From IMG/VR virus record IMGVR_UViG_2585427785_000003: a stretch of DNA of 4,789 bases. One strand, 5' to 3'. Positions 1 to 4,789 of this stretch are shown in pieces. The position numbers were made by a program, and so were the translations under genes. The notes below the pieces were generated by a model. It saw nothing but the letters and a program-made list of their open reading frames with translations, was not told the DNA's origin and ran no database searches. The stretch's first letter is position 1. Each line of letters opens with the position of its first letter. Origin of the DNA: a virus (Duplodnaviria > Heunggongvirae > Uroviricota > Caudoviricetes).

Positions 1-467
1 AACACATCAATGATGAACGCCACATAAACGAAGCCCTGCCATGTGCTGACGTAAGTAAAATCAGCCACCCACAGCTGGTCTGGTCGTTCTGCCACGAACT
101 GACGGTTTACGCGGTCGCCTGCGGCAACGGCTTTCCGGCTGATGGTCGTACGGACCTTTTTACCCCGGAGAACACCGGCAAGTCCCATAACCGCCATGAG
201 ACGTGCCACAGTGCATCTGGCCACTCTGATACCTTCCCGTAACAACTGACGCCAGACTTTACGCACACCGTATACCTTGTGATTTTCATCGTATACGCGC
301 TGTATCTCTTTCTTCAGCCAGTCATCGCGCTGCGCACGGGCACTGCGTTTATCAGGACGATGTCGCTGTTGCTGACAGTGGTAATACGTTGACGGGGCAA
401 TATGCAGTTCGCTGCATAGCGGTCCGCCCCCGTACTGCTCACGCAGCTTATCCAGCAGTGGCATCAT
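1..467 (-). CDS. IS3-family transposase OrfB (DDE integrase domain), N-terminal ~155 codons; 3' part lies outside the window
   Basis: The minus-strand frame starting ATGATG at 467-462 translates [155 protein letters not shown] with no stop down to position 1. It is in the -1 frame relative to orfA and overlaps the orfA stop, as in IS3-family orfAB arrangements. It is absent from the ORF track only because it runs off the window. Confidence 0.85.
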
Positions 468-790
468 TTTTTCCAGAGGCGGTCGAACTCCGCCTTCGCA
501 AAATAAGCGGAAGCCTGGCGAAGGATATCGTTACTGCGGCGCAGTTCACGATTTTCACGTTCCAGCTCTTTCAGACGCTGACGTTCAGCGGTGGTGAGCC
601 CGCCATCACCGCCTCCGGTATCCCGCTCATGCTGGCGTACCCAGACAAGCAGAGTCTCCGGTGTACAGCCAATCTTTGGGGCAATGGAACAAATTGCCGC
701 CCACTGTGAGTCATATTCGCCCTGACTTTCCAGAACCATACGGACTGCCCGTTGACGGACTTCGGGGGAAAAACGAGTATTTTTAGTCAT
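464..790 (-). CDS. IS3-family transposase OrfA (helix-turn-helix / leucine-zipper DNA-binding subunit), 108 aa
   Basis: The ORF-track protein [108 protein letters not shown] matches the IS629/IS1203 OrfA as I recall it. It ends LWKK-stop at an A6 run (plus-strand T-run 467-472) immediately overlapping the orfB ATG. Confidence 0.9.
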
Positions 791-819
791 CCTGTTTACC
801 TCTTTCTCAGGAAGTTTAG

Positions 820-844
820 TCTCCAGGATCCCCGGGGCGGTTCA
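820..844. repeat. Terminal inverted repeat (IRL) of the IS element
   Basis: This is the terminal ~25 bp of the IS, ending ...GGGGCGGTTCA at 844 on the plus strand (TGAACCGCCCC... when read from the IS end inward). The exact IR length cannot be fixed because the opposite end is outside the window. Confidence 0.5.
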
Positions 845-923
845 AGTCTTATCTGCAGCATCAGTACTCCTTTAAGATTGAAAATCCTGCCAATAAGCAC
901 GAGCGTCCTCATCATAAATATCT

Positions 924-927
<4 letters not shown>
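845..927 (+). pseudogene. 3' remnant of a lambdoid class I holin (S) gene, interrupted by the IS insertion
   Basis: The frame ending in TGA at 925-927 (ATGA overlap with the endolysin start) translates ...SYLQHQYSFKIENPANKHERPHHKYL-stop. This resembles the charged C-terminal tail of lambda-type holins (recalled lambda S C-terminus ...[22 protein letters not shown]). The frame is cut by the IS end at 844, so the N-terminal transmembrane part is missing from this side of the IS. Confidence 0.5.
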
Positions 928-1951
<1,024 letters not shown>

Positions 1952-2133
1952 GGTAATATTAAATCGGAACATTTACATCGCGGAATGTAAAATTTAAATA
2001 AAAAGGACTCTTCCATGAGCCAAAATTCCTGAAATCTTAAGGGTAAGATAAAAGGTCTTAATCAGAATGACACGTTTTATTAATAAATAAAGCTATTCTT
2101 TCATTGCTGTGTTTTTCTTTACAAAAGTAATCC

Positions 2134-2162
2134 TTGCTATGGGTGGTTAATCATGCGTTAAT
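2134..2162 (+). promoter_or_regulatory. Candidate sigma70 promoter of the cold-shock gene (cspA-type): -35 TTGCTA 2134-2139, 17-bp spacer, extended -10 TGcGTTAAT 2154-2162; predicted TSS near 2169
   Basis: The hexamers and spacing are seen directly. The architecture parallels the cspA promoter as I recall it (TTGCAT, 17 bp, TGgCTTAAT), with an AT-rich UP-like tract upstream (2075-2130). The predicted TSS gives a 5' UTR of about 145 nt, in the range reported for cspA-family genes. A second candidate is the extended -10 TGtTATAAT at 2202-2210. Confidence 0.45.
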
Positions 2163-2168
2163 GGTGTT

Positions 2169-2313
2169 CTGGTTTGTTACAAATTTATCTGAAGCAGTCA
2201 TTGTTATAATTTTATTATTTGTACCTCTTGAGATTTCCTTGTTGGTTTTTCTCTCTGATATTTTTTTTCGGACCATTCTGCCCAAGGGCTAATTTCTTCA
2301 AAAGGTAATAATT
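2169..2313 (+). promoter_or_regulatory. cspA-type long 5' UTR with cold-box-like start (GGTTTGTTACAAATT...) and the conserved AAGG Shine-Dalgarno context
   Basis: The UTR begins ...GGTTTGTTACAAATTTATCTGAAGCAGTC, which aligns with the recalled cspA leader start ACGGTTTGACGTACAGACCATTAAAGCAGTG. The sequence immediately before the ATG, AAAAGGTAATAATTATG, resembles the cspA AAAGGTAATACACTATG. Confidence 0.45.
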
Positions 2314-2526
2314 ATGTCTAACAAAATGACTGGTTTAGTGAAATGGTTTAACCCTGAAAAAGGTTTTGGTTTCATCACGCCGAAAGATGGCAGCAAAGAT
2401 GTGTTTGTCCATTTCTCAGCAATTCAGAGCAACGATTTCAAAACATTAACTGAGAATCAGGAAGTTGAATTTGGTATTGAGAACGGACCTAAAGGTCCTG
2501 CCGCTGTTCATGTAGTGGCGCTTTGA
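2314..2526 (+). CDS. cspI: CspA-family cold-shock protein (CspI-like), 70 aa
   Basis: The ORF translation [70 protein letters not shown] contains the RNP1-like KGFGFI and RNP2-like VFVHF motifs of the cold-shock domain. It matches the prophage-borne CspI rather than CspA/B/G as I recall them. It has a strong SD (AAGG) and a long structured leader. Confidence 0.9.
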
Positions 2527-2536
2527 GGTAGACAAT

Positions 2537-2725
2537 ATTACAAACCATATTCACTTTAGATGCCCGTGTTGTCATGGTTCCCAGTATAGAACATCATCTT
2601 TTGATGTTTCTGACATGAATCCTTTCGGGGCAAAATGTATCTTTTGTAAATCAATGATGATTACATTTGATAATATTTCACAATACTTAAATGCCAGCCG
2701 TCTGTCGTTGGATTTAAAAAAGTGA
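2537..2725 (+). CDS. Candidate small Cys-rich (zinc-ribbon-like) protein; start codon uncertain (no in-frame ATG/GTG/TTG upstream of the first Cys pair; possible ATT start at 2537 with GAGG SD, or ATG at 2615 giving a 36-aa product)
   Basis: The frame is open from 2516 to the stop at 2723-2725 and reads ...ITNHIHFRCPCCHGSQYRTSSFDVSDMNPFGAKCIFCKSMMITFDNISQYLNASRLSLDLKK. The two Cys clusters (CPCC and CIFC) are about 25 residues apart. The ORF ends 5 nt before a strong intrinsic terminator. A GAGG sits 8 nt upstream of the ATT at 2537. A K-12 Qin prophage gene of this position (ynfN) is recalled from memory only; its sequence is not recalled. Confidence 0.3.
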   Translation: MTNHIHFRCPCCHGSQYRTSSFDVSDMNPFGAKCIFCKSMMITFDNISQYLNASRLSLDLKK

Positions 2726-2730
2726 AAATG

Positions 2731-2756
2731 AAGGCTCCTTCGGGAGCTTTTTTGCT
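2731..2756 (+). terminator. Rho-independent terminator: 8-bp stem (2731-2738 / 2743-2750) with UUCG tetraloop followed by a T-run
   Basis: AAGGCTCC-TTCG-GGAGCTTT followed by TTTGC, giving a GC-rich stem, a stable UUCG tetraloop and a run of 6 or more T. It lies directly after the small ORF and the cspI transcription unit. Confidence 0.7.
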
Positions 2757-2797
2757 TGGTGTCTATTCGATGGATACTCACATACTACGGTAACATC

Positions 2798-3028
2798 ATG
2801 AAAAAAATCATAGTTTTTTTTAACTCTGAACCAGCAGTGGTAGTGCCAGCGATGACTGGAGTTAACACCATCATGCGTGAATATCCAAATGGCGAAAAAA
2901 CACACCTTACTGTAATGGCCGCAGGGTTTCCATCTCTGACCGGAGATCATAAAGTCATTTATGTAGCCGCGGATCGACATGTTACTTCAGAAGAAATTCT
3001 GGAAGCAGCAATAAGGCTCTTGAGTTGA
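2798..3028 (+). CDS. Hypothetical 76-aa protein, YmcE-like (partner gene found upstream of gnsA/gnsB-type genes); alternative starts TTG 2756 / GTG 2759
   Basis: The ORF-track frame from the ATG at 2798 reads MKKIIVFFNSEPAVVVPAMTGVNTIMREYPNGEKTHLTVMAAGFPSLTGDHKVIYVAADRHVTSEEILEAAIRLLS. It lies immediately upstream of a gnsB-like gene, as ymcE does for gnsA in K-12 (recalled synteny and length, not sequence-verified). No good SD precedes the ATG, and the longer TTG/GTG-initiated version would overlap the upstream terminator. Confidence 0.45.
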   Translation: MKKIIVFFNSEPAVVVPAMTGVNTIMREYPNGEKTHLTVMAAGFPSLTGDHKVIYVAADRHVTSEEILEAAIRLLS

Positions 3029-3121
3029 TTTGATGCTATTGCATTGATAATTCAGGAAAATTCTCTTTGTCTGTTTGTGTAAAATTTAGACTATCGTATG
3101 TTGATTATTGCGATGTTTCAT

Positions 3122-3150
3122 CTTATCTTTTACACGTTTGCACCATATAA
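3122..3150 (+). promoter_or_regulatory. Candidate sigma70 promoter for the gnsB-like gene: perfect -10 TATAAT 3145-3150 with weak -35 TTATCT 3122-3127 (17-bp spacer)
   Basis: A consensus TATAAT lies about 50 bp upstream of the gnsB start codon and the -35 is weak. This is a sequence-only prediction. Confidence 0.35.
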
Positions 3151-3199
3151 TCGACTTACTGTGTAACTGGAAAGTCATAACAGACTAAAAGAGGAAATG

Positions 3200-3373
3200 A
3201 TGAATATTGAAAACTTAAAAACAAAAGCAGAAGCAGATATTTCTGAATATATAACAAAAAAAATTATTGAACTTAAGAAAAAGACCGGGAAAGAAGTTAC
3301 CAGTATTCAGTTTACCGCACGGGAAAAAATGACGGGTCTTGAAAGCTATGATGTCAAGATTAATTTAATCTGA
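3200..3373 (+). CDS. gnsB: GnsA/GnsB-family small protein (57 aa)
   Basis: The translation MNIENLKTKAEADISEYITKKIIELKKKTGKEVTSIQFTAREKMTGLESYDVKINLI closely resembles the recalled K-12 GnsA/GnsB sequences (MNIEELKKQAE...FTAREKMTGLESYDVKIKIM). A GAGG SD lies 5 nt upstream of the ATG at 3200; an ATG at 3197 is also in frame. It is missing from the ORF track because it is under 60 aa. Confidence 0.8.
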   Translation: MNIENLKTKAEADISEYITKKIIELKKKTGKEVTSIQFTAREKMTGLESYDVKINLI

Positions 3374-3400
3374 TGTATTCAATAATAAAATTTATCCATA

Positions 3401-3423
3401 AACCTCGTTTTTACGGGGTTTTG
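3401..3423 (+). terminator. Probable intrinsic terminator after the gnsB-like gene (stem 3401-3408 / 3413-3420, TTTT loop, followed by TTTTG)
   Basis: AACCTCGT-TTTT-ACGGGGTT then TTGTTAT; the stem includes one G-U pair and the U-tract is partly inside the stem, so it is of moderate strength. Confidence 0.4.
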
Positions 3424-3524
3424 TTATATTTGAATGGTTCCGAATATCTAAATCACAATTGTTGATGGTTTTTATTAAACCAATGCAGTCCGGCTCAGGA
3501 GTGAGAGAAGCCGGACGTTATGGT

Positions 3525-3935
3525 TTAGCGTGGTAAGATCTGTGTAGTTTTCTGGATGCTTTCAGTAAATAGTAATGAATTATCAAAGGTATAGTAATAT
3601 CTTTTTTGTTCGTGGATATTTGTAACCCACCGAAAAACTCCTGCTTTAGCAAGGTTTCTTCTGTATTCCTGAAATGTGATCTCTCTGGATTTCAGCTTAT
3701 TAGAGGTCGTTTCTATAAGATGCCTATCCTTTGAAAATTTGACAGACACAATGTTTTTTAGGCCCTTTAATAACACTGTATTATCATTTTTTAATACAAT
3801 ATGAACATTCTCTGTGGCTAAATAGTAAATGTAATGTGAGACATTGTGACGTTTTAGCTCAGAATAAAACCATTGATAGTTTAAATCGTTTCGAACTTTA
3901 TCAAATATTTGTTTAAAAATGACTACCTGATCCAT
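3525..3935 (-). CDS. ydfO: DUF1398-family protein (YdfO/YbcV-like), 136 aa from the second ATG; the ORF track's longer version starts at 3950
   Basis: The minus-strand ORF reads [145 protein letters not shown] (3948-3943) lies 7 nt upstream of the ATG at 3935, whereas the ATG at 3950 has no SD. The family assignment is from memory of prophage YdfO/YbcV proteins and their position next to gnsB in Qin-like prophages. Confidence 0.7.
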
Positions 3936-3992
3936 AGATAAACCTTCCATGTGATATGAGGGGGCGTAGTCTGCACGATTATCTAAATTGCT

Positions 3993-4226
3993 TCAATCTG
4001 GTCTGACCTGTTTTCTGAGCAATTCAGTAATGTCACTCTTTTCTTTGTTTGCTTCAGAAGAAACTCTTTTTTCTGAGCACAGTCTCCGGCGGCAGGCTTC
4101 AATGACCCAGGCTGAGAAATTCCCGGCCCCTTTTTGCTCAAGAGCGATGTTAATTTGTTCAATCATTTGGTTAGGAAAGCGGATGTTGCGGGTTGTTGTT
4201 CTGCGGGTTCTGTTCTTCGTTGACAT
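3993..4226 (-). CDS. Small ribbon-helix-helix-like (Arc/Mnt/CopG-type) putative DNA-binding protein, 77 aa; homolog of the conserved ORF found at the right end of phage lambda next to cos
   Basis: The ORF-track protein is MSTKNRTRRTTTRNIRFPNQMIEQINIALEQKGAGNFSAWVIEACRRRL.... It shows a basic N-terminal arm, a beta-strand-like RNIRFP, helix A, a G-x-G-N-x-S turn and helix B, which fits the RHH pattern (compare Arc ...QFNLRWPREVLDLVRKVAEENGRSVNSEIYQRVMESF). A nearly identical ORF is recalled in the lambda right arm on the complementary strand. Confidence 0.65.
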   Translation of the reverse strand: MSTKNRTRRTTTRNIRFPNQMIEQINIALEQKGAGNFSAWVIEACRRRLCSEKRVSSEANKEKSDITELLRKQVRPD

Positions 4227-4374
4227 GAGGTTGCCCCGTATTCAGTGTCGCTGATTTGTATTGTCTGAAGTTGTTTTTACGTTAAGTTGATGCAGATCAA
4301 TTAATACGATACCTGCGTCATAATTGATTATTTGACGTGGTTTGATGGCCTCCACGCACGTTGTGATATGTAGA

Positions 4375-4389
4375 TGATAATCATTATCA
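4375..4389. repeat. Perfect 15-bp palindrome TGATAATCATTATCA, nested in a larger inverted repeat GTGATA...TATCAC (4363-4390); Fur-box-like
   Basis: Seen directly. The 19-mer 4370-4388, GTAGATGATAATCATTATC, matches the Fur-box consensus GATAATGATAATCATTATC at 16 of 19 positions. Confidence 0.6.
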
Positions 4390-4394
4390 CTTTA

Positions 4395-4600
4395 CGGGTC
4401 CTTTCCGGTGATCCGACAGGTTACGGGGCGGCGACCTCGCGGGTTTTCGCTATTTATGAAAATTTTCCGGTTTAAGGTGTTTCCGTTCTTCTTCGTCGTA
4501 ACTTAATGTTTTTATTTAAAATACCCCCTGAAAAGAAAGGAAACGACAGGTGCTGAAAGCGGGCTTTTTGGCCTTTGTCGTTTCCTTTCTCTGTTTTTGT
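4395..4600. other. Lambda-type cohesive end site (cos): cosQ region about 4400-4424, cosN 12-nt overhang sequence GGGCGGCGACCT at 4425-4436, and cosB with terminase-binding R-sites R3 (4479-4490), R2 (4534-4549, inverted) and R1 (4576-4590)
   Basis: 4401-4436 reads TTTCCGGTGATCCGACAGGTTACG followed by GGGCGGCGACCT, which is the lambda right end joined to the lambda left cohesive end as I recall them. Downstream there are three copies of the CGTTTCC(G/T)TTCT R-element, one inverted, and the nu1 ATG is exactly 191 nt after the first cosN base, as in lambda. Confidence 0.85.
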
Positions 4601-4614
4601 CCGTGGAATGAACA

Positions 4615-4789
4615 ATGGAAGTCAACAAAAAGCAGCTGGCTGACATTTTCGGTGCGAGTATCCGTACCATTCAGAACTGGCAGGAACAGGGAATGCCCGT
4701 TCTGCGAGGCGGTGGCAAGGGTAATGAGGTGCTTTATGATTCTGCCGCCGTCATAAAATGGTATGCCGAAAGGGATGCTGAAATTGAGA
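4615..4789 (+). CDS. nu1: Terminase small subunit Nu1 (DNA-packaging protein), N-terminal 58 codons; continues beyond the window
   Basis: The translation MEVNKKQLADIFGASIRTIQNWQEQGMPVLRGGGKGNEVLYDSAAVIKWYAERDAEIE matches the lambda Nu1 N-terminus (winged-helix DNA-binding domain). It is absent from the ORF track because there is no stop within the window; the overlapping track ORF 4550-4756 is in another frame. Confidence 0.9.
   Translation, partial: MEVNKKQLADIFGASIRTIQNWQEQGMPVLRGGGKGNEVLYDSAAVIKWYAERDAEIE

Follow-up and report, generated by a model that had tools for sequence, protein, structure and literature searches.

Do two small genes that lie one behind the other beside the cohesive-end site of a lambdoid prophage work as a unit, or do they only happen to be neighbors? 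The question is raised by positions 3525-4226 of a 4789-bp stretch of viral DNA (IMG/VR record IMGVR_UViG_2585427785_000003; "the window" below means this whole stretch), corresponding to the right end of an Escherichia coli lambdoid prophage of the Qin type. On its minus strand, the region carries ynfO, encoding a 77-residue protein of the YlcI/YnfO family (DUF3950), followed by ydfO, encoding a 136-residue DUF1398 protein. An earlier note, made from the letters of the sequence alone, had proposed that the two might constitute a type II toxin-antitoxin (TA) or similar bicistronic module with a ribbon-helix-helix (RHH) protein as its first member. Its fallback was a cos-proximal regulator accompanied by an unrelated DUF1398 cargo gene, and it is this fallback that the arrangement of the genes, their co-occurrence and their base composition support. 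Overall, we find it fairly probable that ynfO is an independent regulator gene and ydfO a separately acquired piece of cargo. We are much more certain that the two genes are independent than of what YnfO does.

Identity of the two genes

Both open reading frames (ORFs) stand as first described. ynfO occupies 3993-4226 and ydfO 3525-3935 on the minus strand, in the same frame, and RefSeq has genes of these names at the same coordinates. The 57-bp spacer between them (3936-3992) contains the Shine-Dalgarno sequence of ydfO, GGAAGG at 3943-3948, which lies 7 nt ahead of the ATG; an alternative ATG would give a YdfO of 141 residues. The late genes of the window are on the plus strand. The lambda-type cohesive-end site runs from cosQ (4396-4402) to cosN (4426-4437) on the plus strand, as a string exactly as in lambda, and nohA, the nu1 gene, starts at about 4615, so that ynfO and ydfO indeed read away from cos. 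The site is also annotated as cos in the record of phage DE3.

YnfO matched the Pfam model PF13132 (DUF3950) with E=1.5e-20 and 73.2 bits (cut-off 25) and the NCBIfam model NF041551 (YlcI_YnfO_N) with 38.1 bits (cut-off 30). Both hidden Markov models thus place it in the YlcI/YnfO family above their curated cut-offs. In PHROGs, it belongs to phrog_949 (unknown function). YdfO matched PF07166 (DUF1398) over profile positions 1-119 of 119 (E=1.5e-46, 157.7 bits), and 135 of its 136 residues are identical to the NMR structure 2HH8, for which the protein had been produced. Its PHROGs family, phrog_413, is labelled "head protein", and we found nothing in support of this label. Both genes, their families and one structure are therefore already known from databases. 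A 2024 y-ome review lists ynfO and ydfO as uncharacterized (PMC11551758), as the earlier note had presumed, and functional studies of ynfO, ylcI, ydfO, ybcV, DUF3950 or DUF1398 did not turn up in our literature search.

The junction between ynfO and ydfO

Lambda, which we read from the record of the lambda-derived phage DE3, carries both genes, in the order lambdap78 (DUF1398), lambdap79/ybcW, a YlcI-like ORF and cos. The YlcI-like ORF encodes 64 residues, is 96% identical to YnfO over residues 1-54 and sits 120 bp from cosQ (complement 48109-48303 in lambda; 2587-2781 in the DE3 locus, L002). It is omitted from the reference lambda annotation, NC_001416. The conserved cos-adjoining ORF that the earlier note placed in lambda is thus real. 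The accompanying statement that a different gene follows it there holds only for the next gene, lambdap79, which is on the other strand; beyond it lies lambdap78, a DUF1398 homologue with 79% identity to YdfO. In all, 613 bp with the opposite-strand lambdap79/ybcW separate the YlcI ORF from the DUF1398 gene, and the DLP12 prophage of K-12 has the same layout: the DUF1398 gene ybcV (minus), ybcW (plus), ylcI (minus) and cos. As annotated (L002 1520-2053), lambdap78 starts from a GTG and has 177 residues that include translated upstream DNA; the family start is MAQVAIF and the family length 136 residues. Its N-terminal extension is probably spurious, with MAQVAIF as the true start. No evidence turned up for the labels "head protein" and "envelope protein" that lambdap78 bears.

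Comparison of the window with lambda by blastn shows where the two arrangements part. Window 3506-4009 corresponds to the lambda DUF1398 gene with about 75 bp of upstream DNA at 84% nucleotide identity, and window 4064-4789 corresponds to codons 1-54 of lambda ylcI, cos and nu1 at 98%. Between them, a Qin-specific segment of 54 bp (4010-4063) stands in place of lambda's 613 bp. Hence, the C-terminal tail of YnfO (residues 55-77; 3993-4063, minus strand), which is made of the 54-bp segment and the start of the DUF1398 upstream module, is encoded by the junction and is unrelated to the lambda tail. The family has three unrelated tails, those of Qin, lambda and Shiga toxin (Stx)-type phages, and the tails of satellite homologues differ too. 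A 14-nt direct repeat (CTGTTTTCTGAGCA at 4008-4021 and CTTTTTTCTGAGCA at 4066-4079) brackets the 54-bp junction and could be the trace of a recombination event in which the ybcW segment was lost or exchanged. The Qin-type junction was found in 2174 of 5426 complete E. coli genomes and the lambda/DLP12-type ybcW spacer in 1919 of them.

Base composition also sets the two genes apart. The GC content is 30-37% over ydfO, as in the gnsB, ynfN and cspI cargo of the window, versus 44-45% over ynfO, cos and nu1. With its minus-strand orientation in a plus-strand late region, its distinct GC content and its variable presence in phages, ydfO has the features of a "moron".

Occurrence of each gene without the other

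The DUF3950 core was present in 155 of 50,697 phage records and DUF1398 in 43. At least 112 records had DUF3950 without DUF1398, most of them Stx or Stx-converting phages with a different packaging module. In Stx phage YYZ-2008, the DUF3950 gene lies between Rz and the HNH-TerS-TerL genes (TerS and TerL, small and large terminase), antisense to them, and there is no DUF1398 gene; a T-rich hairpin can be read by eye about 220 nt past its stop codon. The blastn match of the window to YYZ-2008 (86% nucleotide identity) extends exactly from the ATG through codon 47. These codons (4086-4226, minus strand) are the conserved core of ynfO, with a basic arm, a putative beta-strand NIRFP and two helices, and they are the sole part of the gene that is common to Stx-type phages.

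The same separation was seen outside Escherichia. By single-query tblastn of a one-genome-per-species collection, about 40 Enterobacterales loci (in Klebsiella, Enterobacter, Serratia, Xenorhabdus, Pectobacterium, Proteus, Tatumella and others) had DUF3950 with no DUF1398 within 5 kb, mostly in satellites resembling phage-inducible chromosomal islands (PICIs). Precomputed Pfam tables for ten DUF3950 loci contained no DUF1398 either. In this collection, DUF1398 stood beside DUF3950 only in lambda-like loci of Escherichia and Shigella and in the many assemblies contaminated with lambda control DNA. For its part, K-12 ycgX, a third DUF1398 paralogue, adjoins bluR and has no DUF3950 partner. A scan of viral contigs returned near-identical Qin-type loci only and added no diversity.

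A cluster of 233-residue proteins (P0122, 761 members; loci L004-L009) appeared to join DUF3950 to DUF1398 as a Rosetta-stone pair. We rejected it as a gene-calling artifact because the in-frame TGA stop of ynfO had been translated as Trp.

The right end of lambda was also seen in dozens of assemblies from unrelated phyla (L107-L137, L154, L158). One of these, the 3566-bp "Arcanobacterium hippocoleae plasmid unnamed1" (CP136411.1, L119), is 99.7% identical to lambda and has been published as a plasmid (PMC11171008). Such assemblies look like sequencing control DNA rather than biology.

Is the pair a toxin-antitoxin module?

As a type II TA system, the pair would consist of YnfO, an autoregulating RHH antitoxin, and YdfO, a toxin that YnfO neutralizes through its C-terminal tail. 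The layout is suggestive, for a small RHH-like gene is followed 57 bp downstream by a gene of about 136 codons on the same strand with no terminator in between, and the prophage also carries relBE and hokD (RefSeq). However, the pair is not conserved as two adjacent, co-oriented genes: an opposite-strand gene splits it in lambda and DLP12, DUF3950 mostly occurs without DUF1398, DUF1398 also occurs without DUF3950 (ycgX), and the DUF3950-DUF1398 fusion protein is an artifact. In TA systems, the C-terminal region of the antitoxin should be conserved together with the toxin, whereas here the YnfO tail changes with the arrangement and in Qin derives from junction DNA, while DUF1398 stays 79% identical. 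Models of toxin, antitoxin and defense families and PADLOC gave no matches to either protein. Finally, overexpression of YdfO has been reported to be beneficial and not toxic, in that it is stated to increase resistance to oxidative stress (PMC4077768). Together, the split loci, the variable tails, the solo occurrences and the step in GC content rule out an obligate TA or operon unit, and we give the TA reading very little chance.

The gnsB gene (3200-3373), which points toward ydfO in convergent orientation, bears the annotation "GnsA/GnsB family addiction module toxin" and matches Pfam GnsAB_toxin (E=3e-35). By annotation, it is gnsB rather than ydfO that would be the TA-like gene of the window, if anything.

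Control of ynfO and ydfO

Next to cosQ, at 4363-4390, lies a palindrome (GATAATGATTATCATC) that the earlier note had offered as a possible target of the RHH protein. Its position matches that of the Fur site "nohA -233" (4615 - 233 = 4382), a site obtained by in vivo selection and shifted by Fur in gels (PMC2189734), and it is not an obvious RHH operator. The Fur box, which is conserved in lambda, is separated from cosQ by 6 bp, and the ynfO ATG follows about 140-165 nt downstream of the box. From this location, a Fur-controlled ynfO promoter is a reasonable inference. We came across no account of how Fur, bound so close to the site of packaging termination, would affect the phage. Closer to the gene, 70-100 bp upstream, a 13-nt inverted repeat (ATCAATTAATACG and CGTCATAATTGAT, 4296-4328) marks a candidate operator/promoter region. 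This repeat is kept in lambda-type loci and is absent upstream of the Stx-type homologue.

The DUF1398 module, in turn, begins within the 3' end of ynfO. A PdhR-box-like palindrome (AACAGGTCAGACCAGAT; 3996-4012, minus strand) forms its left edge. Homology with the region upstream of lambdap78 starts at AGGTCAGACC, and the module begins exactly at AGGTCAGACCAGAT, the PdhR site reported from genomic SELEX (systematic evolution of ligands by exponential enrichment) for both ynfO/ydfO and ybcV/ybcW (PMC7660256). The mRNA of ybcV, the DLP12 paralogue, was 10-fold lower in a pdhR mutant (PMC7660256), and an ionic liquid induces ydfO more than 100-fold (PMC4077768). Since the paralogue depends on PdhR and ydfO is inducible, we infer that the ydfO copy in the window is separately controlled. 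A consensus scan of the spacer (3936-3992) found neither a promoter nor a terminator-like hairpin. Just past the ydfO stop, at 3488-3516 (minus strand), is a GC-rich hairpin that folds better than shuffled sequence (z=-3.1) and has a poor U-tract, and it could be a weak terminator.

Resemblance of YnfO to Arc

The residues I15, R16, F17, I25, N36, F37, S38, W40, V41 and C45 are kept across YnfO homologues of 33-81% identity. In an hhalign comparison of the YnfO family with the Arc family, NIRFP fell on NLRWP and helix A was in register (local P=6.6e-4, probability 27%). Structure prediction with AlphaFold2, a check that the earlier note had suggested, gave for YnfO a helix-helix monomer with coil at 14-18 and helices at 19-32 and 34-73. 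Such a model has the look expected of a monomer from an obligate RHH dimer. When it was compared with the PDB by Foldseek, the top three matches were all Arc repressor (1myl, 1par and 1baz; target-normalized TM-score, TMt, 0.48-0.57). Sequence searches of the PDB with YnfO and with a profile of 19 family members found no RHH match. Of the "clear RHH signature" that had been claimed, the Arc-like register and a plausible topology remain, but no Pfam or PDB sequence match backs it and the structural matches have E-values above 3. Judging from the alignment and the model, we think an Arc-like fold of YnfO quite likely, though statistically not secured.

Several points weigh against the picture of an independent, Arc-like regulator. 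No Pfam RHH model matched any of 19 family members, even at E<=10, the Foldseek E-values of the Arc matches are weak (3-7), and the model has a low pLDDT (predicted local distance difference test) of 69, so that the RHH fold is statistically not established. We found no operator common to the lambda-type and Stx-type upstream regions, not even a shared 8-mer, which leaves autoregulation unsupported. Neither gene showed a sigma-70 promoter in a consensus scan, and we found no direct data on ynfO expression in the searchable literature. Transcription may run on from ynfO into ydfO in the Qin arrangement, where no terminator separates them and they share a frame, and the two genes may thus be co-transcribed. 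Also, the single-query tblastn that yielded the approximately 40 loci without DUF1398 could have missed very distant DUF1398 relatives near the DUF3950 genes.

Relatives of YnfO in satellites and their bearing on function

The DUF3950 family comprises 116 clusters at 50% identity among 1.84 billion proteins. In the species-level scan, nearly all real matches were in Enterobacterales, with one Pasteurellaceae genome in addition; a Pasteurella satellite also bears the gene. In every context examined, DUF3950 is antisense to its neighbors. Its orientation in lambda-type and Stx-type phages is opposite to that of the late operon, at the junction of the lysis and packaging genes. Between alpA, or an AntA/Bro-type gene, and the Icd-like/primase genes of PICI-like satellites, it is the single gene on the opposite strand, antisense to int, alpA and primase.

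This location brings up a more specific role, in which YnfO and YlcI are Mnt/Arc-like repressors, expressed in the lysogen, that silence an Ant/Bro-type gene or a resident satellite, the lambda/Qin copy being an orphan whose target was replaced by other morons. YnfO resembles Arc, and the mnt gene of phage P22 is likewise an RHH gene that lies antisense in late-region DNA. AntA, Bro-N, KilA-N or Ant genes adjoin DUF3950 in several satellites and Stx-type prophages, and the satellite DUF3950 genes occupy the regulatory stretch that separates alpA from the replication genes. An antirepressor neighbor is, however, present in a minority of loci only, and we rejected it as a rule; the window has no antirepressor gene, and no operator was identified. 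We found no functional work on the family in the literature we searched, and a preprint on capsid-forming PICIs (cf-PICIs) does not mention DUF3950. We regard such a role as rather unlikely.

Another role, suggested by the position of the gene, is that of an accessory packaging factor near cos that cooperates with the small terminase or modulates it, in the choice of cos or in termination at cosQ. DUF3950 is always at the lysis/packaging junction of phages, by cosQ in the lambda type and by HNH-TerS in HK97/Stx-type phages. Moreover, in two satellite clusters, P0328 (L010 6001-6363; also L011, L012 and L013) and P0311 (L014 4714-5103), the DUF3950 core is fused, in the manner of a Rosetta stone, to the N-terminal DNA-binding domain of a Terminase_2 small terminase. 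In P0328, this domain is a copy of the helper type: it is 64% identical to an interrupted prophage TerS beside the satellite and 66% identical to the TerS of YYZ-2008, as compared with 53% to the satellite's own TerS. By analogy, fusions of the P0328 and P0311 type may be packaging-hijack factors of a new design similar to Rpp (redirecting phage packaging), a PICI protein that imitates lambda Nu1 with a winged helix and dimerizes through a coiled coil (PMC6739421). It is mainly because these fusions recall Rpp that we keep a packaging or helper-satellite role in view.

For YnfO and YlcI themselves, other evidence is at odds with such a role. As the gene is antisense to the late operon, it would not be co-expressed with terminase. 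The upstream DNA on the cos side is not conserved along with the gene, and no lambda-like cosN was found near the DUF3950 genes of satellites. To our knowledge, neither in vitro packaging of lambda with purified terminase, integration host factor (IHF) and proheads nor minimal cos cosmids need any such factor, which also counts against it. We consider a packaging factor improbable.

The fusion of the DUF3950 core to a helper TerS DNA-binding domain in some satellites also points to a further reading. YlcI and YnfO could represent an unrecognized Arc-like class, encoded antisense in phage late operons and satellite main operons, which acts in helper-satellite conflict or, with TerS, in the recognition of packaging sites; in lambda-type phages, Fur may link the expression of these genes beside cosQ to iron. 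We offer this as a speculative and rather doubtful proposal.

In L010 (8696-8881 and 6641-7876), the interrupted prophage TerS gene appears to be cut after about 61 codons, directly next to the integrase of the satellite. It looks as though the satellite lies inside one of the late genes of its helper, a situation described for helper-embedded satellites (bioRxiv 10.1101/2022.07.18.500453). Long ORFs of 224-429 residues antisense to DUF3950, none with a Pfam match, recur in satellites of several genera (L181 4435-5109, from Pasteurella phage Pmp7; L155 4634-5608; L162 4625-5599; L145 4598-5887; L147 4604-5515). The one in Pmp7 is annotated as "transcriptional repressor". These ORFs may be spurious N-terminal extensions of the Icd-like gene.

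In several genera, a chromosomal DUF3950 gene outside prophages directly follows a TonB-dependent receptor gene near copC/copD (L096-L100, L167, L177, L166). This context and the Fur box upstream of ynfO hint at a link to metals. A single theme for the chromosomal copies was nevertheless rejected, as their contexts are mixed (TonB-dependent receptor with CopCD, cytochrome bd, Salmonella pathogenicity island 5 (SPI-5), citrate transporter).

Other features of the window

Window 845-4789 has 100% identical matches in many complete genomes, and RefSeq annotates rrrQ, rzpQ, cspI, ynfN, gnsB, ydfO, ynfO and nohA across it. Window 1-844 is an IS3-family element, inserted in ydfR, with an apical loop-internal loop (ALIL) frameshifting pseudoknot at 393-509. 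A cspA-type RNA thermoregulator at 2168-2553 spans the cspI leader and gene. An Rfam scan found no families within 3400-4789. An internal duplication in YdfO, for which we also looked, was not significant (P=0.14).

Proposed roles of the two genes

In our picture, ynfO and ydfO would be unconnected passengers that stand side by side in Qin-type prophages by chance. YnfO would be a small dimeric RHH protein of the Arc type that probably binds DNA, and its 47-residue core a conserved fixture of the lysis/packaging gene junction in lambdoid phages. Since ynfO is transcribed against the late operon, it would most likely be expressed during lysogeny from a promoter of its own near cos, where lambda-type phages have the Fur site. 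The protein may act as a transcriptional regulator, probably a repressor.

ydfO, on the other hand, would be a separately acquired AT-rich moron that brought about 75 bp of its own upstream DNA, with the PdhR-box palindrome and the ribosome-binding site. Its product, for which 2HH8 provides an orphan alpha/beta fold, would be a cytoplasmic protein unrelated to YnfO and not a toxin neutralized by it. Probably, ydfO is transcribed alone in response to stress or PdhR, with read-through from ynfO as an additional possibility in Qin.

As a finding, two annotated y-genes of a well-known cryptic prophage for which the TA reading fails are ordinary. The residual interest lies in the unannotated, conserved 64-codon ORF beside cosQ in lambda and in the fusion with a terminase domain in satellites. 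Phages whose terminases are unrelated have retained the same 47-residue core where the lysis genes meet the packaging genes, and many satellites carry it too. If the protein acts on packaging or on phage-satellite regulation, it would be a new player in one of the best-studied phage systems, whereas little changes if YnfO is only a moron regulator.

Comparison with known systems

The locus resembles systems with RHH antitoxins (ParD, CcdA, RelB-type) in that a small RHH-like first gene is followed by a gene of about 130 codons. It differs from them in that the partner and the tail are not conserved, YdfO lacks a toxin fold, and the two genes are found apart in close relatives. P0328 follows the design logic of Rpp of Gram-negative PICIs (PMC6739421), in that a copy of the helper TerS DNA-binding domain is joined to a different module of dimerization type. 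P0328 is unlike Rpp in having a Terminase_2-type helix-turn-helix and the DUF3950 core, and YnfO of the window is unlike both, as it has no terminase-like domain.

YnfO also has a likeness to Arc and Mnt of P22 (PF03869). In the alignment, the N-terminal arm, the strand motif N-[IL]-R-[FW]-P, helix A, the Gly-containing turn and the N-capped helix B fall in register. Arc is also small and phage-encoded, and it provides the top structural matches. In contrast to Arc and Mnt, YnfO has no significant membership in their sequence family, and no ant gene adjoins it in the window. As for the locus as a whole, lambda and DLP12 share with the window the RHH-like core, cos, the Fur box, nu1 and the DUF1398 gene with its 75-bp upstream module; they differ from it in having lambdap79/ybcW between the genes and a different, shorter YlcI (64 residues) with another tail. 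The Qin prophage of K-12 has the same genes, ynfO (b4533) and ydfO (b1549), in the same order and with the same spacing, and the window copy differs from it in the IS3-family element upstream in ydfR and otherwise in nothing of substance.

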